Below the pieces are notes generated by a model, which saw only the letters and a program-made list of their open reading frames with translations, was not told the origin of the DNA and searched no databases. Made by a program: the position numbers and the translations under genes. Shown in pieces: positions 1-53,639 of a stretch of 64,000 nucleotides of DNA; within the stretch, counting starts at the first letter, position 1, and the number at the start of each line of letters is the position of its first letter. Source of the stretch: an uncultured Candidatus Saccharibacteria bacterium (GTDB taxonomy: Bacteria; Patescibacteriota; WWE3; CAZQFB01); assembly GCA_964592525.1 (NCBI GenBank), contig CAZQFB010000001.1, positions 1,212-65,211 of the forward strand, given 5' to 3'.

Positions 1-145
1 TGGCGGCGCATTTCGCAAAGCGAAATACGAAATTCGGCGGCGGCGAAAGCGAGGGCGGGGCGGGCATTCATTTCCCCCCAACCCCCTTTTCTGCCCGCCC
101 CGCCCGAGCGTTCTGTTTTGGTTTCTGCCGCGCTTTGCGCGGCAA
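1..145. repeat. GC-rich cluster of hairpin-forming palindromes at the window edge. Examples: ATTTCGC-AAA-GCGAAAT, GGGCGGGGCGGGCA-N25-TGCCCGCCCCGCCC, GCCGCGC-TTT-GCGCGGC.
   Basis: Palindromes read directly from the sequence. The composition is much GC-richer than the bulk of the window. Confidence 0.4.
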
Positions 146-193
146 TCAATCGGGATTTTGTTCAAAAAAGGTTCGCGCTTCGTTCAGTAATTG

Positions 194-351
194 CGACCAA
201 TCTAAACATTGCGAATTTTGCGGGCAGTTTGTTGGCTCGCTCGCCCCGCCTGCGGCGGGGCTTCGCTCGCATTTTTCCATATATTTCGGCACAAAATCAA
301 ACGGACGGACAAAATCAAAAATCAGTTTTCTGTCCAGTAGGCGGCGGTTCG
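194..351. repeat. Left copy of a perfect 158-bp inverted repeat (IR-L).
   Basis: The reverse complement of 1903..2060 is identical to 194..351 over 158 bp. The match breaks at 193/2061 and at 352/1902. The outer end of the repeat is CGACCA. Confidence 0.9.
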
Positions 352-533
352 GGGCGGCAAAGCCGCCAGAGCAAAAACACACCTTTAAGAAATTTATTGA
401 AATGTTTTTGCTTTCCAATTTTTTCCGCGTGCCGCAAAGCGGCACTACGAAGCCAGTTTTTAAATCCCGCGCTTTTTCCGCCGAAGGCGGAATGGCCAAA
501 GGCGACTTTATTAACATTAAGAAGTAAAAACCT

Positions 534-2066
534 ATGAAGACAAAATATTTTCTCTACGCCCGCAAATCAACCGAAGATGAAGAAAGACAAGTGATGAGTA
601 TTGAAGCACAACTTGCGGAGTTGGCGGACTTTGCTAAAAGAGAAAGCCTTGATATTGCCGAGCAATTTATTGAAAGCAAAAGCGCAAAGAAGCCGGGCCG
701 AGAAATTTTTAACGAGATGATACAGAAAATCTACGAGAGTAAAGAGCTAGTAGGAATTTTGGCGTGGCACCCTGACAGATTGGCGAGAAACAGCGTTGAC
801 GGTGGGCAAGTGATTTACTTGATAGACATCGGCAAGATCGCTTCTTTGCGCTTTCCGACATTTTGGTTTGAGCCAACTCCGCAAGGGCTTTTTATGCTTC
901 AAGTCGCCTTTGGCCAATCAAAATATTATTCCGACAATTTGTCGGAAAATGTTAAGCGCGGGATTCGCCAAAAACTCAGGCGCGGCGAATGGCCCGGCCT
1001 TGCGCCGTTTGGTTATGTGAATAATCCGAAAACGCGAACGATTGAGCCAGACCAAATGAAAGCAAGGGTTATCAAAAAAGCGTTTGAGGAATACGCGCAA
1101 GGCCGCCACACCTTGCTTTCACTCGGCGAACGCCTGAGTTTTTGGGGCGTGGTGAGCGGGACCGGAAAACCGCTTTGCAAAGCAACCCTGCAACGAATGC
1201 TGACAAATAAAGTTTATCTCGGCTTAATCGTCCATAATGGTGAAACTTACGAGGGCGGTTTTCCGGCAATTGTTTCCAGAGCGACTTTTGAGAAAGTACA
1301 GGAAGTTTTGAAAAACCGAGCCAAGCCGCGCCATTCCAAAAAGCGACATTATTTTCCATTCACCGGACTTTTAACTTGCGGCGAATGCGGCGCGGCTATT
1401 ACCGCCCAATGGACGCACGGCAACGGCGGGACTTACCGCTATTATCGTTGTACCAAGCGGCTTGGCTCGTGTTCGCAAAGATATTTGAGAGAGGATTTGC
1501 TGGTTGAGCAGTTGAAAGACAAAATCTCAAAAGTCGCTCTTTGCGAAGACTGGAAAGAAAAAATGCTGGCAAAAGTGGAAATGTGGGAAAAGGAAAATAT
1601 CCAGTCTTCGCAATCTTTCGCCCAAAATCTGGAAAAGGAAATCAAGGAAACCGAGCAAAAATTAGACAAGCTCGTTAACGCCTTTTTGGACGGAAGTATT
1701 GAAAAAGAAACTTACCTTGCCAAAAAGGACGAACTCATTAAAACAAAAACAGACCTTAACAAAAGAAAGGCTGATTTTGGGCGAAAGGGAAACAATTGGA
1801 TTGAACCATTGAAAGATTGGATTTTATCCGCTCACCACGCCGAAAAACTGGCTTCGTCAAACGATTTTGATGAAATCAAATCGTTTGCGGAAAAAATTGG
1901 AACGAACCGCCGCCTACTGGACAGAAAACTGATTTTTGATTTTGTCCGTCCGTTTGATTTTGTGCCGAAATATATGGAAAAATGCGAGCGAAGCCCCGCC
2001 GCAGGCGGGGCGAGCGAGCCAACAAACTGCCCGCAAAATTCGCAATGTTTAGATTGGTCGGGGTGA
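534..2066 (+). CDS. Large serine recombinase (resolvase/invertase N-terminal domain plus recombinase domain plus zinc ribbon).
   Basis: The N-terminus reads MKTKYFLYARKSTEDEE..SIEAQ, the resolvase catalytic-Ser motif. The C-terminal half has a Cys-rich zinc ribbon (CGECGAAITAQ...YYRCTKR...CSQ) and a coiled-coil. The last 53 codons lie inside IR-R. Confidence 0.8.
   Translation: MKTKYFLYARKSTEDEERQVMSIEAQLAELADFAKRESLDIAEQFIESKSAKKPGREIFNEMIQKIYESKELVGILAWHPDRLARNSVDGGQVIYLIDIGKIASLRFPTFWFEPTPQGLFMLQVAFGQSKYYSDNLSENVKRGIRQKLRRGEWPGLAPFGYVNNPKTRTIEPDQMKARVIKKAFEEYAQGRHTLLSLGERLSFWGVVSGTGKPLCKATLQRMLTNKVYLGLIVHNGETYEGGFPAIVSRATFEKVQEVLKNRAKPRHSKKRHYFPFTGLLTCGECGAAITAQWTHGNGGTYRYYRCTKRLGSCSQRYLREDLLVEQLKDKISKVALCEDWKEKMLAKVEMWEKENIQSSQSFAQNLEKEIKETEQKLDKLVNAFLDGSIEKETYLAKKDELIKTKTDLNKRKADFGRKGNNWIEPLKDWILSAHHAEKLASSNDFDEIKSFAEKIGTNRRLLDRKLIFDFVRPFDFVPKYMEKCERSPAAGGASEPTNCPQNSQCLDWSG
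1903..2060. repeat. Right copy of the perfect 158-bp inverted repeat (IR-R). It overlaps the recombinase 3' end and the first 6 nt (CCA end) of tRNA-Pro.
   Basis: See IR-L. 2055..2060 (tggtcg) is the complement of the tRNA 3' end CGACCA. Confidence 0.9.
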
Positions 2067-2130
2067 CAGGATTCGAACCTGCGACCTCACGCACCCCATG
2101 CGCGCGCGCTGCCAACTGCGCCACACCCCG
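2055..2130 (-). tRNA. tRNA-Pro (anticodon GGG).
   Basis: Manual cloverleaf. Acceptor CGGGGTG/CACCCCG. D-arm GCGC-AGTTGGCA-GCGC. Anticodon stem CGCGC/GCGTG with loop ATGGGGT (GGG anticodon, G37). T-arm GCAGG-TTCGAAT-CCTGT. Discriminator A and an encoded CCA. Very similar to E. coli proL. Confidence 0.85.
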
Positions 2131-2318: not shown

Positions 2319-4382
2319 TTATTCAGGACAGCAGATCCTCTCTCGGGCAATTTCTTCCCACTCCTCTCTATAATAGGCGATTCTTCCAAATTTAGTTGCG
2401 CGATATGTTCTGTAAGTGGGGTAGAGCACCTTACTACTGTCTTCACAGCTAATTCGAGCTTGCCTATAGACGCCACCCATGATTGGGTCAAACGGCAGTA
2501 CGGTGTAAGCACAAGTCGTTTCACAATCCGCGTTTTCTGTGCAAAGATCTGGAGCATCAAGGGTATCTGGTCTTATCTCACAAGTGTTGTCCGGTGTGCA
2601 ATACCTTTGGTAACAGTCCGCATCAAACTTGCAGTCATCGGCTTTATTTCCAGGAACATTCACACAGGTCATATCGACACAAGTTTTGTATTCTGTCAGT
2701 GGCGGTATATAACCTTCAGAATCAAAAGCGCCGGTATGCCTCTCATCATGCAGATGTTGAGGCCAGTCTAGGTATCCCATGGCTAATTCCAGTGAATAAG
2801 CATGTAAAGTCGATGTTTTTCTGTCTAGGTAAGATAAAAAGACTAAGTCGGTCAGACCATCTTGGTTTATATCAGCAATAGCAGCGTGATGCACGATGGT
2901 TTCATTTGCGTCGGTTTGTTTCAGAGTAGGTATTGGTGGATAGACATCTTCTCTAATTGTTTTACCCTCTACTCTGTAGAAATGATAGGCCGGTTCGTTA
3001 TCTGAATTACCATACTTAATAAACTCTTTGTAACCATCACTGTCTATATCTCCTATTACAGTATCCGCAATCCCAGTTTCATAGAATAAGTTGCCTGTTA
3101 TATTAGCAGGATTATTAGGTAGAATAGATATCTCAACTTCTGCACTAGGAGCTCTTCTAAAAGAATTATTCCCACTGGCAACTATAGTGCCCTGTGCATC
3201 GATAATTCTTAGGTTGTTTTCACTATCAATTAAAATTTCTGCTTGACCATCATTATTGAAGTCTGCTACCGACAAATAGACTCTTTTACTTGTGCCTGTA
3301 GCGTAATCTGTGATTTTTGTTCCATCTACTTTATATGCTTGCACATAAACTTCGGAGGAGGTGGTTTCTCTGGTGTCAGTGATAATTTCAAGATTAGAGT
3401 CATCATCAATATTTGCCAGGAGAACATTACCCTTTGTGTGGTTAGTTATTATCTTTGGCCATCCGGGCAAGTAGCCAGAGCCACTTTTGTAGACATAGAT
3501 TGCTCCATACATACCTCCTGTTCCTAGCCGAGTGCCTCGGTTTGCTGGCCAACCGTTGGAAATTACTACCTCTTTATCCACGCCTCCATCTAAGTCTCCT
3601 GCCAGAATATTCGGTGTTTCAGGAAGCGTGTTGTCGATTGATTGGTACATGAGTGAAACGTCATCGTCTGTAACAGTGTTTAGTTTATTGGTTAGTATCT
3701 CGAAGCTGGGGTAGCCTCTGCTTCGACCCCAATCCCACAAGGAGTTGAAAATTATACATTCGTATTCGTTGTTACCATCTAAATCTTCAACCACTAGATT
3801 TTGATTTAATCTAGCAGCACCGAGTGAGCGTTGGTACTGGTTCTCATAGCCTTGGTTATAAAGATGTATCTTTCCCCAATCACTATAGTTAGAGTATTCA
3901 CCATATGCTATATATTTCTCACAATCCTGACAGGAAGCATTGGAGGGGGCTATGGCTGGTAATTCTATATTTTCAATTCTCGCAGCAGCGCCTTGGCTGG
4001 TTGCGCGCTCCCTTTCCAGCTCCTTTATCAAGTAACCCTCGTGGTTAACAACCTGAACGCGATTTGATGTAGCTACAACCACTTCAAGTTCGGGTGTGTT
4101 ATCCACATTACCTACTACAGGTACTAAAGGCTCAGCTTCCTCACTGTTCAGGGAGATGTTAAAGATGCTTTTGTAAGGTAAACCTGTCGGAGAAGCATCA
4201 TCGCTGATACTGCCAGAAGGTACCTCTGCTGCTCGGTTTACATATTGTTGTGTGGAGCGGAGGAACACTAAAGAGAAGGGTAGGGCAAAGAGCACGATAA
4301 AAAGAATTAGCAAACGGTTATAGTTTTTTAAAAAAGCTACAACCTTGGCAGGTGCGTTCATAACAAGCTTAATTATAAACAT
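2319..4382 (-). CDS. Secreted or membrane-anchored FG-GAP/DxDxDG-repeat beta-propeller-like protein with a Cys-rich C-terminal domain.
   Basis: N-terminal transmembrane segment (LLILFIVLFALPFSLVFL). Repeated DLDGNNE, GDLDGGVDKE, ADFNNDGQAE, GDIDSDGYKE and ADINQDGLTD motifs. C-terminus reads CVDMTCVNVPG..CKFDADCYQRYCTPDNTCE..CTENADCETTC. GGAGGAGG Shine-Dalgarno 8 nt upstream of the ATG at 4382. Confidence 0.6.
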   Translation of the reverse strand: MFIIKLVMNAPAKVVAFLKNYNRLLILFIVLFALPFSLVFLRSTQQYVNRAAEVPSGSISDDASPTGLPYKSIFNISLNSEEAEPLVPVVGNVDNTPELEVVVATSNRVQVVNHEGYLIKELERERATSQGAAARIENIELPAIAPSNASCQDCEKYIAYGEYSNYSDWGKIHLYNQGYENQYQRSLGAARLNQNLVVEDLDGNNEYECIIFNSLWDWGRSRGYPSFEILTNKLNTVTDDDVSLMYQSIDNTLPETPNILAGDLDGGVDKEVVISNGWPANRGTRLGTGGMYGAIYVYKSGSGYLPGWPKIITNHTKGNVLLANIDDDSNLEIITDTRETTSSEVYVQAYKVDGTKITDYATGTSKRVYLSVADFNNDGQAEILIDSENNLRIIDAQGTIVASGNNSFRRAPSAEVEISILPNNPANITGNLFYETGIADTVIGDIDSDGYKEFIKYGNSDNEPAYHFYRVEGKTIREDVYPPIPTLKQTDANETIVHHAAIADINQDGLTDLVFLSYLDRKTSTLHAYSLELAMGYLDWPQHLHDERHTGAFDSEGYIPPLTEYKTCVDMTCVNVPGNKADDCKFDADCYQRYCTPDNTCEIRPDTLDAPDLCTENADCETTCAYTVLPFDPIMGGVYRQARISCEDSSKVLYPTYRTYRATKFGRIAYYREEWEEIARERICCPE

Positions 4383-4568
4383 ATTATTCCTCCTCCCTCA
4401 ACATTACGTGATAGCGATGTTAAAAGGACGTTTTTTACTGGTCATTATTTTAAGAGGGGAGTGTAAATAATGGTTTTAATCTGCTACAATTCATACACTA
4501 ATACTGGTAACAAGCGCTGTAGTTTAGTGTATTACCACGTACCTACTTGCCCAAGAAAGGTTATAACC

Positions 4569-5597
4569 ATGCCTAAAAACGAACCGACAGATACCCAAGG
4601 TGATCGCAAAAAAGCTGTGGAAATGGCTTTGGATCAAATTGAAAAACAGTATGGTAAAGGTTCCATTATGCGGATGGGTCAGGATTATATTAGGGAGGGG
4701 ATCAGGGTAATTCCAACTGGCTCATTGGCGCTTGATTTAGCCTTAGGTGTGGGGGGAGTCCCTCGCGGTAGGGTGATTGAGATTTACGGACCCGAATCTT
4801 CTGGCAAGAGCACTTTGGCATTGCACGTGGTGGCGGAAGCTCAAAAGCAGGGAGGAATAGCAGCCTTTATTGATGCCGAACATGCTCTAGACCCCCTTTA
4901 TGCGGAAAGAATTGGGGTTAAGGTGGATGATTTGCTCGTTTCTCAACCGGATACTGGTGAGCAGGCTTTAGAAATTGCTGAAACCTTAGTCCGCTCGGGT
5001 GGGGTGGATGTGTTGGTGATTGATTCGGTGGCGGCGTTGGTGCCTCGAGCTGAAATTGAGGGGGAAATGGGCGATGCTCATATTGGACTGCAAGCTCGCT
5101 TAATGTCCCAAGCACTTCGTAAACTCACTGCGGTGATAGGTCGTTCAGGTGCAACGGTAATTTTTCTTAATCAACTCCGAATGAAGATAGGGGTTATGTT
5201 TGGTAATCCCGAAACTACGGCTGGTGGAATGGCGCTAAAATTTTATTCTTCCGTGCGTATGGATATTCGCGCCATCTCTAAAATCAAAGAAGGTGATGAG
5301 GAACTGGGTGGTCGGCGACGAGTAAAAGTGGTTAAGAACAAAGTAGCACCTCCTTTTCGTATTGCTGAATTTGATCTTATGTACAATGAGGGTATTTCCA
5401 AAGAAGGTGAGATTGTGGATCTGGGTGTAGAGTTTGAAGTTTTGCAGAAAAGTGGTTCTTGGTACCAACACGGCGAGCAGAAATTGGGTCAGGGTCGCGA
5501 AGCAGTAAAAGCTCTCTTGCGTGAGGATCATAAATTGGCTAAGGAACTAACTGAAAAAATAAAAGACAAGGTGCTTTCCCAACACGCGACTAATTAA
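4569..5597 (+). CDS. recA: Recombinase RecA.
   Basis: Walker [11 protein letters not shown]1/L2 regions and the typical RecA N-terminus MPKNEP...[18 protein letters not shown]. The ATG at 4569 is chosen over the longer track ORF. Confidence 0.9.
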
Positions 5598-5598
5598 C

Positions 5599-6213
5599 AT
5601 GCCCCAAATTACCGCCATCAAACCGCAGACAAAAGCCGGTTATTTTAATGTCTTTATTGCTGGTGAGTATGCTTTTTCTCTAGATGAAGTTGGTCTTTTA
5701 AGTTCAGGTATCAGTAAAGGAGATGAGTTGAGTGCTGCTGCCATAACTAAATTAAAGAAACTAGCTGCGCAGACTAAATTATTTAATTCCTTATTGCGCT
5801 ACGTGGGGTTAAGACCAAGAAGCCAGAAAGAAATAGAAGACTACCTTCAGTATCGTAAAAAAGTTAGTGCTACTACAACTAAAGCACTCGTAGCCAAATT
5901 AACTAAGCTTGGTTTAATTGATGACCGAGCTTTTACGAAGTGGTGGGTGGAACAACGAACCAACCAGAAAAAAGGAGAATATGTCATTATCAGGGAACTA
6001 GCTCTCAAAGGAATTAAGGAGAGGGATGTTCGGGAAATGTTTGGGGAGGTTGGCGGTGATGTGCTTACGGATATATCCTCATTAGTACGTAAGAAAAAGC
6101 AGCAGTTGCAGAGTTTACCCCGAAAAGAACAACATCAAAAATTAGCGGCTTTTCTGATGCGCAGAGGTTATCCCTGGGAGCAAATAAAGCAGGTTTTAGA
6201 GCAGGAGTTATAA
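5599..6213 (+). CDS. recX: Regulatory protein RecX.
   Basis: Immediately downstream of recA. The three-repeat helical RecX-like sequence includes GLIDDRAFTKWWVEQR and ELALKGI. Confidence 0.65.
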   Translation: MPQITAIKPQTKAGYFNVFIAGEYAFSLDEVGLLSSGISKGDELSAAAITKLKKLAAQTKLFNSLLRYVGLRPRSQKEIEDYLQYRKKVSATTTKALVAKLTKLGLIDDRAFTKWWVEQRTNQKKGEYVIIRELALKGIKERDVREMFGEVGGDVLTDISSLVRKKKQQLQSLPRKEQHQKLAAFLMRRGYPWEQIKQVLEQEL

Positions 6214-8423: not shown

Positions 8424-9667
8424 TTGATCTTAAATGGTTGAAAGAACATCCGGCAGAAGTAAAACAGATGCTCGCTTTAAGAGGGGTAGTGGTGGATATT
8501 GAACGTTTAATTGCTTTGGACAATGAGCGTTTAAAAGTACTGCAAGAAATTGAGGCAATTCGGGCGCAACGCAACGTGCTAACGCAAAATGACCGTGCAC
8601 AGGGTGTGGCGTTAAGGGCACAATTAAAAGAGTTAGAGCCAAAACTTAAAGCCTTGTCCCAAGAAGTCCTGGCGTTGCACGAAAGCATTCCAAATTTGCT
8701 GCATCCAGATGTGCCCGAAGGTACGAGTGAGGCAGATAATACGTTGGTACGTAATTGGTTTCCTACTGGGGAAACACCCCAGACCTTGTCATTTAAAGCT
8801 AAGAGTCATGAAGAACTAATGACTAATCTGGGTTGGTTGGATTTAGAGCGCGGGGCCAAAGTCAGCGGGAGTGGTTTTTTTTACCTAACGAGAGAAGCGG
8901 TATGGTTAGAATTAGCGTTAATCCAGTATGTGCTTAAACTGTCGCAAGCAAAGGGGTTTATCCCAGTTATCACCCCCGAATTGGTCCGGCAAGATTATAT
9001 TGAAGGCACGGGTTATTTGCCCAAGAGAGAAGAACCGGATATTTATAAACTAGATAACGAAGATTTATACCTCATTGCCACGGCCGAGATACCTTTGGCC
9101 GCTATGCATGCGGGAGAATTACTTAGCCAGGAAGAGCTACCCCTAAAGTACATTGGCTTTTCTTCTTGCTTTCGCAAAGAATCGGGTACTTACGGGAAGT
9201 ATCGTCGTGGCATATTTCGGATGCATCAGTTTGATAAGTTGGAGATGTTTGTTTTTACCACTCCTGACCAATCAATGTTAGCCTTTAAAGAAATAATTGA
9301 GTTGGCTGAAGAGATTGTGCAAGGCTTAAAAATACCTTATCAGGTGGTTAATATTTGCGCGGGGGAAATGAATGGTCCCGGTCATCTAAAATATGATCTA
9401 AATTATTATTCACCGGTTGATAACACTTATCGCGAGTTGGGAAGTGGGACTAACACTACTGATTATCAAGCACGACGCCTAAATATTAAATATCGTACTG
9501 CTCCGGGAACAACTGAATACGTGCATACTCTTAATAACACGGCTGCGGCGATGTCTCGTTTACCCATTGCCATAATTGAGAATTACCAGCAAGCAGATGG
9601 TTCGGTATTAATACCAGAAGTGTTACAAGAGTATATTGGTTATGAGGTCATAACAGGAAAAAAGTGA
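8420..9667 (+). CDS. serS: Serine--tRNA ligase.
   Basis: N-terminal coiled-coil arm and class II core (FRKESGTYGKY, RMHQFDKLE, GSG). Overlaps the lysS stop. Confidence 0.85.
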   Translation: MIDLKWLKEHPAEVKQMLALRGVVVDIERLIALDNERLKVLQEIEAIRAQRNVLTQNDRAQGVALRAQLKELEPKLKALSQEVLALHESIPNLLHPDVPEGTSEADNTLVRNWFPTGETPQTLSFKAKSHEELMTNLGWLDLERGAKVSGSGFFYLTREAVWLELALIQYVLKLSQAKGFIPVITPELVRQDYIEGTGYLPKREEPDIYKLDNEDLYLIATAEIPLAAMHAGELLSQEELPLKYIGFSSCFRKESGTYGKYRRGIFRMHQFDKLEMFVFTTPDQSMLAFKEIIELAEEIVQGLKIPYQVVNICAGEMNGPGHLKYDLNYYSPVDNTYRELGSGTNTTDYQARRLNIKYRTAPGTTEYVHTLNNTAAAMSRLPIAIIENYQQADGSVLIPEVLQEYIGYEVITGKK

Positions 9668-10185
9668 AGATAAAACGGAAATTACCTTTAAAAGCTACCC
9701 CCAGTAAAAAATATTTATTGGTTTGGGTAGTGGCTATCTATACTGGTTCAGTGCTAGCTCAATTTGGCGGCTTTTCTGATCTATCTATGTTAGCAATCTG
9801 GGGTCTTTTATTTTCAACGGTAATTACTATCACCCATAGTTTAAAAAACCACCTTACCTCCAAAATGCAGTCTTATCATAACATACTGGTGCTTTGTATG
9901 GGTTTTACCTTTCTTTTTTCACTGCTGTATTTGGTCTTACCCCAAATGACGCAATTGTTACAGCCTTCTTTTGTTTATGCTTTATGGCATTTGGTCATGA
10001 CTATGGGGTATGCCACGATCGTCAAAATATTTAAGGATACGACGCTATTAATCTCATTATTAATTTCTTTGCTCACTCTTAGCTTATATCTGATTCCTCA
10101 ATTTATGGATCTATATCCTTTAATCTTTGGTCTTATACAAGCACCTTTGTTATTAGTGATAGGTTATATTTATTTGCATGACTGA
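9664..10185 (+). CDS. Polytopic membrane protein, function unknown.
   Basis: Multiple hydrophobic segments. Start overlaps the serS stop. Confidence 0.4.
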   Translation: MKIKRKLPLKATPSKKYLLVWVVAIYTGSVLAQFGGFSDLSMLAIWGLLFSTVITITHSLKNHLTSKMQSYHNILVLCMGFTFLFSLLYLVLPQMTQLLQPSFVYALWHLVMTMGYATIVKIFKDTTLLISLLISLLTLSLYLIPQFMDLYPLIFGLIQAPLLLVIGYIYLHD

Positions 10186-10609: not shown

Positions 10610-11374
10610 ATGACCATCTTTCAGGCTATTATACTTGGTGTAATACAAGGGTTAACGGAGTTTTTACCGATTTCTTCTTCGGGGCATTTGATTTTGGTTT
10701 CTATTTTTTTGGGTTGGGAAGTTCAAAGTCTAGCTTTTGATGCAGCGCTTCATTTAGGGACCCTTGGTGCGTTGTTGCTTTATTTTTCTGCGCAGTTAAA
10801 GAACCAGTTACGCAACCCCCTTTTTTTACAGGTGATCTTAATTGGTACTTTACCAGCAGTGGGGTTGGGTTTGCTTTTGAATGATTATCTAGACACGGTG
10901 CTTCGCTCTCCTGTGGTGGTGGGAGTTAATCTAATTTTAATAGCTCTAGTTATGTGGTTTGTGCAGAAACGTGCGCAGTCAAATCGAGATCAGACAAAAC
11001 TTACCAAAATTGATGGTCTCGTCATTGGTCTTTATCAGGCGTTGGCTCTTGTGCCGGGGGTATCTCGCTCGGGTTCAACTATTATTGGTGGTTTACAGCG
11101 GGGCTTGACACTGCCCGAAGCTGCTTCTTTTGCTTTTTTGCTTGGTTTACCTGTAATTGCTGGGGCGGCTTTGTTTAAAGTGATTGCTTTATATTTGAGT
11201 GCTGGTTTGAGTAAGACTGACTTCGGCTTGATGGCGGTTGGTATTGCTAGTGCGGCGGTGGTTGGTTTGCTTACTATTAGATTGCTACTTAAGTATTTGG
11301 GTAGTCATTCTTTGAAAATCTTTATTGTCTACAGAATTATCTTGGGGATTATTGTGCTGTGGTTATTTAGCTAA
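10610..11374 (+). CDS. uppP: Undecaprenyl-diphosphatase (BacA/UppP).
   Basis: N-terminal GVIQGLTEFLPISSSGHL and the internal PGVSRSGSTI motif. Confidence 0.8.
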   Translation: MTIFQAIILGVIQGLTEFLPISSSGHLILVSIFLGWEVQSLAFDAALHLGTLGALLLYFSAQLKNQLRNPLFLQVILIGTLPAVGLGLLLNDYLDTVLRSPVVVGVNLILIALVMWFVQKRAQSNRDQTKLTKIDGLVIGLYQALALVPGVSRSGSTIIGGLQRGLTLPEAASFAFLLGLPVIAGAALFKVIALYLSAGLSKTDFGLMAVGIASAAVVGLLTIRLLLKYLGSHSLKIFIVYRIILGIIVLWLFS

Positions 11375-11419
11375 GGTGGTTACTATTAATGCTATAATCC
11401 GAACACTAATTGGACTTTA

Positions 11420-13969
11420 ATGGCTTCATTTTTAAATAAAATCATTGATCTTAATGAGCGAGAGTTAAAAAAACTCACCCCTCTGGTGGATCAAATTAAT
11501 GCTTTAGAAGCAGAAGTTGCATCTTGGTCAGAAGCGAAGTTTAAGCAGCAAACTACTTTGTTCAAAGAAGAAGTTGGTTCGGCTTCCGACTTGGCTAGCA
11601 GTTTAGATACGGTTTTACCTTTAGCTTATGCCATGGTGAGAGAAGCGGCGGGTCGCACCGTAGGCATGCGTCATTTTGATGTCCAAATTATGGCGGGGAT
11701 AGTTGGTCACCAAGGTAAAATCTTTGAGCAGAAAACTGGAGAGGGTAAGACGCTAACTTCAACTTCACCGCTGTACCTTAACTCCTTGTCTGGTAGATCG
11801 GTGCACTTGGTCACTGTTAACGATTTTTTAGCGCAACTTCATACAGGTTGGAATGGTCCAATTTATTCTTATTTAGGAGTAAGTGTGGCTGCTTTAGTGC
11901 ACGATGGTGCTGTACTATATGATCCCGATTATGTTAACGAGACAGCTAAAGATGCTAGGCTAGTACATTTAAAACCGATTACGCGGCGAGAGGCTTATGC
12001 AGCCGATATTCTTTATGGCACCAATAGCGAGTTTGGTTTTGATTACCTACGAGATAATATGGTTAAAGATTTAAGGCAGAGAGTACAGCGTGATTATTAT
12101 TTTGCTTTGATTGACGAGGTGGATTCAGTTTTGATTGACGAAGCCCGCACGCCTTTGATTATTTCCGCTCCGGCAGAGGAAGCGGTGGATAAGTATTACC
12201 AATTTGCGGAGTTAGCCTCAAAATTAACTGCTAAAACAGATTACGAAGTTGACGAGAAAAGGAAAGCTGCTAGTTTAACAGAGATAGGGGTGCGTAAGCT
12301 AGAAAGATGGTTGGGGGTAGATAATTTATACGAAAAAGATTTTGAAACCTTGCATCATATTGAAAATGCGTTAAGAGCTAATGCTGTTTTTGTTAAAGAT
12401 AAGGATTATGTTGTGCGGGAAGGGGAGCTCATCATTGTGGATGAATATACCGGTCGCTTAATGATCGGCAGGCGTTATAGTGAGGGGTTGCATCAGGCAT
12501 TGGAAGCTAAAGAAAAACTCTCCATCCAAAGGGAATCCCGGACCTTAGCCACCATTACTATCCAGAACTATTTCCGCATGTATGAAAAATTATCGGGTAT
12601 GACGGGTACAGCAAAGACAGAAGAAGAAGAATTTTTTAAGATTTACGGCTTAGAAGTAGTGGTTTTGCCAACTAATAAATCAGTTTGCCGAAAAGATTAT
12701 CATGATGTGGTTTATAAAACAGAAACTGCTAAATATCGTGCCATTGTAAATGAAATTGCGACTTGTTATGAAAAAGGACAACCAGTTTTAATTGGCACCA
12801 CCTCTATTGAGAAAAACGAACTGATGCATGGTTTGCTTAAGCGCAAAGGCGTACCCCATAAACTGCTTAATGCCAAAAACCACTTAGAAGAAGCGTCCAT
12901 TATTGCCGAAGCAGGGCGTTTGGGGGCGGTGACCGTGGCTACTAATATCGCTGGTCGTGGGGTGGATATAGAGTTAGGGGGAGCTGGTCCTAAGAAATAT
13001 GAAGGTGAGGAATGGTCCGCAGAACGCGTGGCGATGTGGCAGCAAGAACATGGTCAAGTGTTGGAACTGGGAGGTCTTCATGTCATTGGTACCGAAAGAC
13101 ATGAATCAAGACGGATTGACAATCAGCTTAGAGGTCGCAGTGGGCGACAGGGTGACCCTGGCTCAAGTCGTTTTTACGTGTCTTTGCAGGATGATTTAAT
13201 GCGTATTTTTGGCGGGGAAAAAATAGCTAGCATGATGAGTACTTTTAAAATTGACGAAAACACGCCGATTGAAGTTGGTTTGATTAGTAAAACTATTGAA
13301 TCATCGCAGAAAAAGGTAGAAGGCTTCCACTTTGATCAGCGCAAGTACTTAGTTGATTTTGATGATGTTAATAATATTCAACGGGAAATTATTTACGCCA
13401 TGAGGCAAAAAATACTTTTAGCTTTAGAAGAGACCGCTACCGTTGATGCTGCCGATTTAGATTTTAAGACTTGGATGCTAGCCAAGTTATCGGCTTACGC
13501 GCCAAATATTAACACGGTTTGGGAGGAAAAAGAAAAAGAGTTGGGGTCGGAATTGTTTTTAGCTATCGTCCAACAAATCACTCTGGATACAATAGATGTT
13601 TTGTGGATGGACACGATTGATGTGCTGTCTAACTTGCGTGAAGACGTTAGTTTGCAAGGTTATGCTCAAAGAGATCCAGTGGTTGAGTATAAAAAAGAAG
13701 CCCGCGCTTTGTTTGATCGATTAATCACTGATATTTTTACTACGGTAGCCGATCGGCTCACTAAATTAACGGCTAATGTTTCTCGGGTGGAAAGGACAGC
13801 AAAACCCTCTGGACTAACCTTTTTGCACCCTGCTAGCAATGCTAATAGTGGGGGGAAAGCTTCTCAAAAACCGGTGACGATTAGAAAAGAGGCTAAAGTA
13901 GGTCGTAATGATCCTTGTCCTTGTGGGAGTGGTAAGAAATATAAAAAATGTTGCGGTCAGAAAGATTAG
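11420..13969 (+). CDS. secA: Preprotein translocase ATPase SecA.
   Basis: 849 aa. DEAD-like motor motifs and a C-terminal zinc finger CPCGSGKKYKKCCG. Confidence 0.9.
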   Translation: MASFLNKIIDLNERELKKLTPLVDQINALEAEVASWSEAKFKQQTTLFKEEVGSASDLASSLDTVLPLAYAMVREAAGRTVGMRHFDVQIMAGIVGHQGKIFEQKTGEGKTLTSTSPLYLNSLSGRSVHLVTVNDFLAQLHTGWNGPIYSYLGVSVAALVHDGAVLYDPDYVNETAKDARLVHLKPITRREAYAADILYGTNSEFGFDYLRDNMVKDLRQRVQRDYYFALIDEVDSVLIDEARTPLIISAPAEEAVDKYYQFAELASKLTAKTDYEVDEKRKAASLTEIGVRKLERWLGVDNLYEKDFETLHHIENALRANAVFVKDKDYVVREGELIIVDEYTGRLMIGRRYSEGLHQALEAKEKLSIQRESRTLATITIQNYFRMYEKLSGMTGTAKTEEEEFFKIYGLEVVVLPTNKSVCRKDYHDVVYKTETAKYRAIVNEIATCYEKGQPVLIGTTSIEKNELMHGLLKRKGVPHKLLNAKNHLEEASIIAEAGRLGAVTVATNIAGRGVDIELGGAGPKKYEGEEWSAERVAMWQQEHGQVLELGGLHVIGTERHESRRIDNQLRGRSGRQGDPGSSRFYVSLQDDLMRIFGGEKIASMMSTFKIDENTPIEVGLISKTIESSQKKVEGFHFDQRKYLVDFDDVNNIQREIIYAMRQKILLALEETATVDAADLDFKTWMLAKLSAYAPNINTVWEEKEKELGSELFLAIVQQITLDTIDVLWMDTIDVLSNLREDVSLQGYAQRDPVVEYKKEARALFDRLITDIFTTVADRLTKLTANVSRVERTAKPSGLTFLHPASNANSGGKASQKPVTIRKEAKVGRNDPCPCGSGKKYKKCCGQKD

Positions 13970-53454: not shown

Positions 53455-53567
53455 ACCACTACGTACCTTAATACCTTCCTGGCGTCAGTCAGTTTTTATA
53501 CCCTAAAGATTATCATAACTGTAATATTACCAGCAGGCGAATTCCGTAAGGGGGTATATTATTGATG

Positions 53568-53639
53568 AGGCGCGGACGGGAATTGAACCCGTGAAAAACG
53601 GTTTTGCAGACCGTTGCATTACCATTCTGCCACCGCGCC
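53568..53639 (-). tRNA. tRNA-Cys (anticodon GCA).
   Basis: Manual fold. Acceptor GGCGCGG/CCGCGCC. A 3-bp D-stem, typical of tRNA-Cys. Anticodon stem ACGGT/ACCGT with loop CTGCAAA. T-arm ACGGG-TTCAATT-CCCGT. Discriminator U. CCA not encoded. Confidence 0.8.

Follow-up and report, generated by a model that had tools for sequence, protein, structure and literature searches.

At the left edge of a 64,000-nucleotide (nt) stretch of contig CAZQFB010000001.1 from an uncultured Candidatus Saccharibacteria bacterium (hereafter the window), a large serine recombinase (LSR) gene lies between perfect inverted repeats and next to a tRNA-Pro(GGG) gene. We consider it probable, at roughly 0.8, that window positions 137-2130 are the recombinase end of an integrated, widespread and apparently undescribed mobile island composed of two modules. 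The recurrent layout in related loci is [armA-cargo-armA'][armB-LSR-armB'], with the insertion point at a core of 4-7 nt within a tRNA gene's 3' end, and the 158-nt repeat of the window (armB and armB') is best read as the LSR-side half of a duplicated attP region, attP being the attachment site of the element.

Results

The inverted repeat and its recombinase gene

Positions 194-351 and 1903-2060 form an inverted repeat of 158 nt which is 100% complementary over a spacer of 1551 nt, far beyond chance expectation, and the arms enclose a single open reading frame (ORF; 534..2066, plus strand; 510 aa). The last 53 codons of this ORF fall in the right arm, its frame runs across the core as TGG TCG (Trp-Ser), and its stop codon (TGA, 2064-2066) lies within the tRNA gene. 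An intact tRNA-Pro(GGG) was placed by ARAGORN at 2055-2130 on the minus strand, overlapping the right arm by 6 nt (CGACCA), and Rfam placed it likewise (59.4 bits), as its only match. An earlier note, made from the window's letters, had described the perfect repeat around one LSR gene, the CGACCA tip as the 3' end of a minus-strand tRNA-Pro(GGG), and the 53 terminal codons by which the protein would be kept upon inversion; all three descriptions were confirmed, the LSR frame being preserved in either orientation. The note had also called the segment visibly GC-richer, which holds slightly (0.459 for 194-2060 versus 0.414 elsewhere) and amounts to a weak deviation of about 1.5 standard deviations (same-size windows: standard deviation 0.029, maximum 0.531); the GC outlier is positions 1-193 alone (0.575).

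Judging from its domains, the 510-aa protein is a bona fide LSR. Pfam matched Resolvase (PF00239, residues 6-153, E = 6.9e-20), Recombinase (PF07508, 176-262) and Zn_ribbon_recom (PF13408, 275-331); the catalytic motifs YARKS (R10/S12) and DRLAR can be read in the translation; and residues ~340-420, heptad-like and rich in Lys and Glu, align at the sequence level with the coiled-coil region of the SPbeta integrase. The closest solved structures are the SPbeta and A118 integrases, the SPbeta alignment spanning residues 6-412. Within the arm-encoded peptide, column conservation was higher in the inner part (NRRLL..P.D...Y; 0.55) than in the outer one (0.38). Among 8000 candidates scored, 6723 were homologues at E<=1e-10, with a top identity of 96%, and their named sources were Patescibacteria, Omnitrophota, Elusimicrobia, Acidobacteria and Marinimicrobia. 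The best homologues in phage (50,697 records) and plasmid (72,556 records) collections were only 25-30% identical, and no close relative of the LSR was found among 2.9 million viral contigs. A minus-strand ORF (146..517), which holds the duplicated C-terminal 53 residues, was considered as a small regulator and rejected, as it suffers non-triplet indels among close relatives.

A set of 163 related loci was assembled, 80 of them from species-representative genomes, 3 by exact protein match and 80, with 10-kb flanks, from JGI metagenomes; confirmed relatives in the two collections scanned numbered at least 525 and at least 561. Complete repeat-flanked LSR modules were found in 90 loci, with a median arm of 150 nt (range 63-228), the arms being 100% identical in 36 modules, 98 to <100% identical in 23, 95-98% in 14 and less so in 17, so that 59/90 have arms at least 98% identical. 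The database search of the recombinase, which the earlier note had proposed as a check, showed the repeat-flanked architecture to recur in related loci of many phyla. The LSR gene typically lies 200-500 bp from a contig end, and some contigs start exactly within an arm, as would be expected of arms exceeding the assembler k-mer; many homologue-bearing contigs are only ~2 kb long (1.8-2.4 kb). These contig-end positions, as well as the location of the repeat less than 200 nt from the window start, might suggest that a chimeric or fold-back contig end made a false inverted repeat, an outcome which the earlier note had listed as fatal to its reading. However, at least 90 loci, obtained in different projects and with different assemblers, have this architecture, some of them at internal sites of 84-kb and 482-kb contigs, the arms often carry a few mismatches, and the arm sequences co-vary with the element lineage. 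We regard an assembly artefact as having practically no chance of being the explanation.

The recombinase module probably belongs to a two-module element

Comparison of the flanks placed the left arm inside a larger unit. The right flank of the module is always the T-arm plus acceptor end of a tRNA, with the arm tips reading outward in the same sense; a minus-strand tRNA lies directly downstream of the LSR gene in 112 loci (83 tRNA-Pro with anticodon GGG, TGG or CGG, 11 Ala, 4 Trp, 3 Gln, and others). The left flank is not host DNA and consists of a conserved sequence of ~45-57 nt, termed X, with the consensus aAAAaaggTTcG.gCt.cgTtcAg.Aa.tg. An nhmmer profile of X matched directly upstream of armB in nearly every locus and, in the window, at 137-199 (55.8 bits), which is the sole copy in the 64 kb. 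Where the locus extends further (L081, L083, L146 and others), X proves to form the tip of another pair of inverted repeats upstream, armA/armA' (130-435 nt), which surrounds the cargo and overlaps armB by 4-7 nt. We delimited 21 complete two-module elements of 3.1-10.7 kb, and armA partners were found later for 5 more. The clearest case is locus L081 (Table 1), whose LSR is 96% identical to that of the window and whose arm tips are identical to it. The armA' of the window resembles those of L146 and L003 in type but has no relation to the armA' of L081; from these relatives, we infer that the window starts inside armA', the cargo module and the left attachment site (attL) lying beyond its left edge.

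The junctions of 11 two-module loci were compared base by base, which revealed that (i) the far junction, S0, reads host DNA, core and the reverse complement of X, (ii) the tRNA junction, S2, reads the reverse complement of the arm tip, the core and the reverse complement of the tRNA, and (iii) the internal junction, S1, is in these 11 loci the exact reverse complement of the left half of S2 plus the core plus the right half of S0. By this rule, S1 is therefore an intact inverted copy of the attP that excision by S0 x S2 would create. Direct repeats of the core flank the whole two-module unit in relatives, and the host flank joined to the core rebuilds the tRNA 3' end, followed by T-rich DNA; this composite would be the original target, attB. 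The core repeats and the restored tRNA bear out the proposal of the earlier note that a tRNA 3' end serves as attachment site for an integrative element.

That proposal had the repeats themselves bounding the element. In this form, 194-2060 would be a compact autonomous transposon-like element of ~1.9 kb with 158-bp terminal inverted repeats, in or beside the tRNA, in keeping with the many gene-bearing contigs of just 1.8-2.4 kb, with the symmetry of the ends of each module, and with locus L096, where an LSR module stands without a cargo module. However, the left arm is internal: it abuts not host DNA but X, which is conserved in essentially every locus and continues, as the tip of another repeat pair, into armA' and the cargo. 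Moreover, the core direct repeats and the tRNA-restoring host DNA bound the two-module unit and not the LSR module, the ~2-kb contigs are explained by assembler breaks at arms longer than the k-mer, and conservative recombination between inverted sites cannot excise a segment. As for L096 (9650-9720), its cargo module is gone and 21 nt of the reverse complement of X are fused to the armB tip at a TGCGA microhomology, which marks it as a deletion derivative. A compact element is very unlikely on this evidence, the true unit being the two-module one.

Anatomy of the attachment sites

On the tRNA side, 19 nt separate the arm from the start of the universal T-loop hexamer GGTTCG in 59/74 loci; within X, this distance is 24 nt in 55/78 loci. 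In LSR attachment sites, the motif of the zinc-ribbon domain occupies bp 16-24 of the half-site in attP, and lies 5 bp centreward (bp 11-19) in attB (Rutherford et al., PMC3783163). The 24-nt versus 19-nt spacing matches this 5-bp rule, which argues that X is a P-type and the tRNA T-arm a B-type half-site; the attP/attB offset is seen for one half-site of each attachment site. The arm tip (consensus CgaCcAa...aaActTt) has a proximal RAAC in common with the reverse complement of X and is devoid of the outer motif, and the host side of attB is arbitrary. As the outer motif is present on one side only, each site would combine one strong and one weak half-site, the weak halves alone being exchanged at crossover. 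Such an exchange would leave attL resembling attP and attR resembling attB, and this could permit factor-independent excision and inversion.

The hexamer occurs once more at the inner arm end (window 343-351 and 1903-1911), which reads ...GGCGGTTCG in ~57/90 modules; the coding copy specifies there the residues T-N-R-R of the conserved KIGTNRRLL. The hexamer could be present at this place through constraint on the coding sequence, as an additional binding site of the LSR, or as a scar left by an ancient event at a pseudo-site; no convincing core-like sequence was seen by eye at the proper spacing from this inner-boundary hexamer.

Several points weigh against reading 137-2130 as the end of a two-module island. 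Of the island, the window itself shows just the LSR module plus 193 nt of armA', and what is said of its cargo module and attL is drawn from relatives. In 13 loci, whose upstream sequence is just 3.6-5.7 kb long, no armA partner was seen, and a cargo module may thus not be universal; L096, in addition, is an LSR-only derivative. The circular form is hypothetical, and its junction would be the reverse complement of S1, so that contigs cannot tell the two apart. The assignment of P and B half-sites is drawn from motif spacing alone, and the arms, at 90-435 nt, are longer than the ~25 bp per half-site that should suffice. Finally, the evidence consists of contig sequence and includes no empty site, excised circle or recombination activity.

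Co-evolution of the arms

Among 17 elements of the 158-nt arm class, comparison of left arms between elements gave a median of 45 differing positions (range 5-82), and within an element the two arms show 0 differences in 10/17 cases. Relative to the window, L010 carries 51 substitutions and L081 carries 5, all of them in both arms. The earlier note had taken the perfect identity to imply recent formation or gene conversion; this family-wide concerted evolution speaks for homogenisation and against recent formation. Identity of armB between elements (67-97%) is decoupled from that of the inner gene (75-91%) and from the armA' type, which gives the family a mosaic make-up whose breakpoints fall at the core and the inner boundary of the arms. 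In the window, an ORF of 204 aa comes immediately after a recA-like ORF (375 aa), where recX is usually found (4470-6213, plus strand; by eye from translations), so the host probably has the machinery for gene conversion of the arms.

The repeat also has a broken inward continuation, in which 413-428 pairs with 1887-1902 (16/16) and 447-461 with 1843-1857 (15/15). In the left copy, a 61-nt insertion bearing a GC hairpin (352-412) separates these inner blocks from armB, and the hairpin GTGCCGCAAAGCGGCAC stands between the blocks in place of a different hairpin in the coding copy (1853-1892). The blocks 413-428 and 447-461 are conserved in L081-L083 and L090; they look like degenerate remnants of a once longer repeat, and the surviving 15-16 nt may be regulatory. 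Small hairpins with GCAAAGC-type loops were noticed at 7-29, 45-113 and 128-144, and similar ones at 353-367, 427-445 and 479-491, which together look like one family of short palindromic units.

Orientation of the recombinase segment

By their flanks, 136 loci were classed as N-type (X-armB-LSR>-armB'-tRNA(-)), 13 as F-type, with the opposite arrangement, 4 as mixed and 11 as uninformative. Phasing was taken as reliable where the arms are imperfect or shorter than 110 nt, which was the case for 45 loci; of these, 40 are N-type, none is cleanly flipped, 3 are mixed and 2 were left unclassified. All contigs of opposite orientation have long perfect arms which de Bruijn assemblers cannot phase. 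F-type contigs such as L118 were examined as proof of flipping and rejected as such: the outer ~135 nt of the arms are identical, and a mis-phased normal element gives the same contig.

These counts bear on an invertible switch, in which the LSR (using S1 and S2 as inverted P-like and B-like sites) or RecA (using the arms) would flip the LSR segment and so control the LSR or its neighbours. The geometry fits, with inverted sites and an LSR frame intact both ways, 13 loci do show the opposite arrangement and 4 a mixed one, and gene conversion of the arms implies some recombination. On the other side stand the common orientation of 40/45 reliably phased loci with none cleanly flipped, the confinement of opposite orientations to unphasable contigs, the position of the cargo on the strand opposite to the LSR in 18/21 elements, and the lack of conservation among host neighbours. 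The promoter scan, which covered the outward-facing promoters inside the repeats that the earlier note had asked about, found no promoter-like site in either arm, and promoter and terminator counts in the region are no higher than in shuffles. Nor does the protein resemble the Hin/Gin/Cin invertases, being of 510 aa with LSR domains and not of ~190 aa with a C-terminal helix-turn-helix (HTH), and one orientation prevails in reliably phased loci. We judge such a switch to be quite unlikely. The more specific suggestion of the earlier note, a phase switch acting on the adjacent gene for an FG-GAP-repeat protein, fails on three counts: host neighbours differ in every locus, inversion at S1 x S2 would regenerate identical junctions, and the 40 classifiable loci share a single orientation. 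Frequent or equilibrium flipping and a link to the FG-GAP gene are both unsupported, while low-frequency inversion may occur. Our working view is that the internal inverted attP is a live LSR site for rearrangement or accretion of modules, and not a switch of host genes.

Mobility, arrays and derivatives

LSR modules 86-92% identical at the nucleotide level stand beside tRNA-Pro genes that differ from one another, as do the neighbour genes, and comparison of 3 kb of host flank detected no similarity. Locus L088 contains a tandem array, in which an element with a 92%-identical LSR is followed by a junction made of the reverse complement of the arm tip, the core and the reverse complement of X, and then by a complete two-module element at tRNA-Pro. 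The LSR of this second element (3687-5408), just 46% identical to that of the window, has the same two-module architecture and an X-like half-site, GGTTCTAACTTTTTCGTAAATCT, followed by CGACCA, at a tRNA-Pro(TGG). The array therefore points to a resident attR serving as the target of a newcomer and to an architecture that reaches distant clades, and on the evidence of this locus the architecture would be much older and broader than the sampled clade.

Other loci represent decayed or rearranged forms. L083 has a decayed X plus an arm-tip remnant to the left of its attL, and L090 (5554-10000) is a natural deletion derivative without S1 and armB. In L041 (940-2937), an LSR module lies between a tRNA-Pro(GGG) on the plus strand and a tRNA-Pro(CGG) on the minus strand, with L037-like and L038-like arm tips and inner arms 97% identical; this is what would be expected if S1 had recombined with a second tRNA-Pro site, or two elements with each other by homologous recombination, and it may record a chromosomal inversion brought about through the internal attP or through such recombination of two elements. 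In L094, the X-tipped arms on either side of the LSR module are not the same. Reading L094 as a circular form was rejected, for its flanks beyond X differ, and a tandem array of which it shows the inner LSR module is the better interpretation. A circular form was likewise rejected for contigs that have X at both sides (L144), as a mis-phased normal element gives the same contig.

Cargo and host neighbourhood

The cargo is diverse and consists mostly of defence genes. It includes type II restriction-modification systems (HinfI or TdeIII with an N6_N4 methyltransferase), type I HsdRMS with an SMC-like ATPase, an OLD-family AAA_15/TOPRIM nuclease, helicase-methyltransferase sets, Fic with DUF3800, a radical-SAM protein, an ECF sigma factor and a sodium:solute symporter. 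The strand bias of the cargo mentioned above was determined on the 21 complete elements. A gene of ~70 aa for an XRE-type HTH protein often lies beside armA', whatever the cargo type, and its copies look similar by eye (Table 1); rather than a restriction-modification controller, it may represent part of the element's backbone, for instance a regulator or perhaps a directionality factor. No replication genes were seen in the examined cargo, and no recognisable gene for a recombination directionality factor was seen in the elements.

The hairpin and T-run of armB' lie ~50-80 nt downstream of the tRNA. Directly beyond the tRNA of the window, on the minus strand, 2319-4382 encodes a 687-aa FG-GAP-repeat protein with a Cys-rich C-terminal region, which is not a conserved neighbour of the element in any other locus. 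Look-ups of this protein and of the window's LSR by exact sequence matched no record. A second tRNA gene, tRNA-Cys(GCA), is found at 53567-53639 (minus strand). No related recombinase and no further X were found elsewhere in the 64-kb window.

Table 1. Features of the window, of the two-module element in locus L081, and positions of the XRE-type HTH genes
Sequence	Feature	Positions	Strand	Basis or remark
Window	armA', distal part (arm proximal to the cargo module)	1..136	.	Cut by window start; 78-84% identity to L146/L003 arm; frequent contig break point in related loci
Window	X, conserved element sequence, putative P-type LSR half-site	137..193	+	GGTTCG at 170-175, 24 nt before arm start
Window	Internal junction S1 (X-core-armB tip), intact inverted copy of the attP expected from excision	137-225	.	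Junction rule in 11 two-module loci
Window	Core CGACCA of S1	194..199	.	Junction rule
Window	armB, left arm; non-coding inverted copy of LSR 3' end	194..351	.	Kept in 90 complete modules
Window	GC hairpin CCCCGCC-TGC-GGCGGGG plus T-run, inward-facing, terminator-like	245..275	+	Scan site 255-270 (+)
Window	LSR upstream region with repeat remnants and conserved GC hairpins	352..533	+	Conserved in L081, L082, L083
Window	Large serine recombinase gene, 510 aa	534..2066	+	Pfam domains
Window	armB', right arm; codes C-terminal 53 residues of LSR; tip supplies last tRNA nucleotides	1903..2060	.	Repeat and family comparison
Window	Mirror terminator-like hairpin, just downstream of tRNA	1979-2009	-	Scan site 1999-1984 (-)
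Window	attR	2035-2085	.	armB' tip plus tRNA T-arm
Window	Core of attR, TGGTCG on plus strand = CGACCA of tRNA; putative crossover region	2055..2060	.	Same 4-7 nt at S0, S1 and S2 of two-module loci
Window	tRNA-Pro(GGG), integration target, 3' end restored by arm tip	2055..2130	-	ARAGORN, Rfam
Window	Putative B-type LSR half-site: tRNA acceptor and T-arm	2061..2079	-	GGTTCG at 2079-2074 (-), 19 nt from arm
L081	Host flank			Ends ...aaaaaataaa
L081	armA	2991-3323		Starts TGGTCG-CAATTACTG...
L081	Cargo: DUF6119, DEAD/ResIII helicase, N6_N4 methyltransferase, HTH	between armA and armA'
L081	armA'	9335-9667
L081	armB	9662-9819
L081	LSR	between B arms
L081	armB'	11370-11527
L081	tRNA-Pro(TGG)	11522-11598	-
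L027	XRE-type HTH gene	2933-3154		By eye
L081	XRE-type HTH gene	8951-9160		By eye
L083	XRE-type HTH gene	9163-9381		By eye
L118	XRE-type HTH gene	2391-2606		By eye
L146	XRE-type HTH gene	9103-9318		By eye

Discussion

A possible mechanism for the two-module island

We propose that the LSR would integrate a circular form of the island by attP x attB recombination, and would recognise one motif, GGTTCG(A), at a distance from the crossover that is 5 bp greater in X than in the T-loop of the tRNA. In the integrated island, the tip of armB' and the T-arm of the tRNA make up attR and regenerate the tRNA; at the far end, host DNA, the core and the reverse complement of X make up attL. A resident attR could in turn be used as target by newcomers, giving rise to tandem arrays, and gene conversion would keep the two copies of each arm identical. 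The hairpin of the arm, downstream of the tRNA, probably replaces the displaced terminator of the tRNA and shields the convergent LSR gene from read-through.

A bolder version would make the internal inverted attP and the long homogenised arms a working device and not a relic, allowing the island to integrate, excise and invert its modules without a directionality factor, either as a circle resembling the yeast 2-micron plasmid or as arm-folded single-stranded DNA which rebuilds a duplex attP after uptake. We hold this version to be speculative and rather unlikely; if true, it would amount to a new organisation of serine-recombinase mobility and of cargo exchange in reduced-genome bacteria.

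Significance

LSRs are major genome-engineering tools, and their choice of sites and one-way directionality are under active study. The present family is a very large natural clade whose targets are systematically the 3' ends of tRNAs, which as late as 2020 were described as an unreported class of target for LSRs. Comparative data are enough to read its attachment sites directly, and these show a clean P/B offset of 5 bp around a motif universal in tRNAs. The intact inverted attP and the co-evolving arms of the integrated element are neither predicted nor explained by current models of LSR elements. The family is apparently a significant vehicle of restriction-modification and other defence genes in uncultured lineages, among them Patescibacteria and Omnitrophota, whose metagenome assemblies it recurrently causes to break into separate contigs.

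Comparison with known systems

Full-text searches of the literature returned no account of an LSR island built of two modules, each with its inverted repeat, and holding an inverted attP inside. The LSRs of phiC31, Bxb1, A118/LI and SPbeta (SprA) have in common with that of the window the three-domain protein, with a putative coiled-coil-like region, the short shared core of the attachment sites and the 5-bp shift of the outer motif. Unlike these phage and element LSRs, the present one has a tRNA 3' end as target and an outer motif on one half-site per attachment site, and its integrated element keeps an intact inverted attP inside, together with homogenised arms of 90-435 nt. According to Mageeney et al. 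(PMC7192596), serine integrases were not known for targeting tRNA genes, with 14/297 candidate cases for which experimental proof was called for. P4-like islands and tycheposons are likewise small cargo islands at tRNA 3' ends; the tRNA is restored on their insertion, several may stand in tandem at one tRNA, and their cargo serves defence or adaptation. They differ in using tyrosine integrases (tyrosine recombinases in 910/937 tycheposons) and direct repeats of tens of nt of tRNA, whereas here an LSR, a direct repeat of 4-7 nt and long inverted repeats for each module are found.

The invertases Hin of Salmonella, Gin of the Mu G segment and Cin of the phage P1 C segment, of the size and fold given above, require an enhancer and Fis, both orientations of their segments coexist, and in the case of Hin the recombinase gene is inside the invertible segment. 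They resemble the LSR module in combining a serine recombinase with a segment bounded by inverted repeats, with crossover sites at its outer ends, and differ from it in that the window has a far larger LSR and hybrid attachment sites at a tRNA, in one orientation wherever phasing is reliable. The yeast 2-micron plasmid carries the FRT sites of its FLP protein, a tyrosine recombinase, in inverted repeats of 599 bp, replicates autonomously and uses inversion for copy-number amplification. An excised island would hypothetically be similar, as a circle of two unique segments split by identical inverted repeats (armA plus armB, ~490 bp in L081), each with a recombinase site, the LSR gene being in one segment and the cargo in the other; this likeness is derived from the integrated structure, and the examined cargo, in contrast to the 2-micron plasmid, showed no replication genes.

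IS607 is also mobile DNA with a serine recombinase, but its enzyme is small, has an N-terminal DNA-binding domain and is promiscuous in its sites, while the elements of TnpX (Tn4451) and TndX (Tn5397) excise as circles and have no long inverted repeats. The present family differs from all three in its site specificity for tRNA ends and in its two-module repeat architecture, in agreement with the remark of the earlier note that the arrangement is atypical for phiC31-type integrases and for IS607. Overall, the island is known in kind, as an LSR integrative element; what is unusual is its target class and its unexplained, strongly conserved internal architecture.

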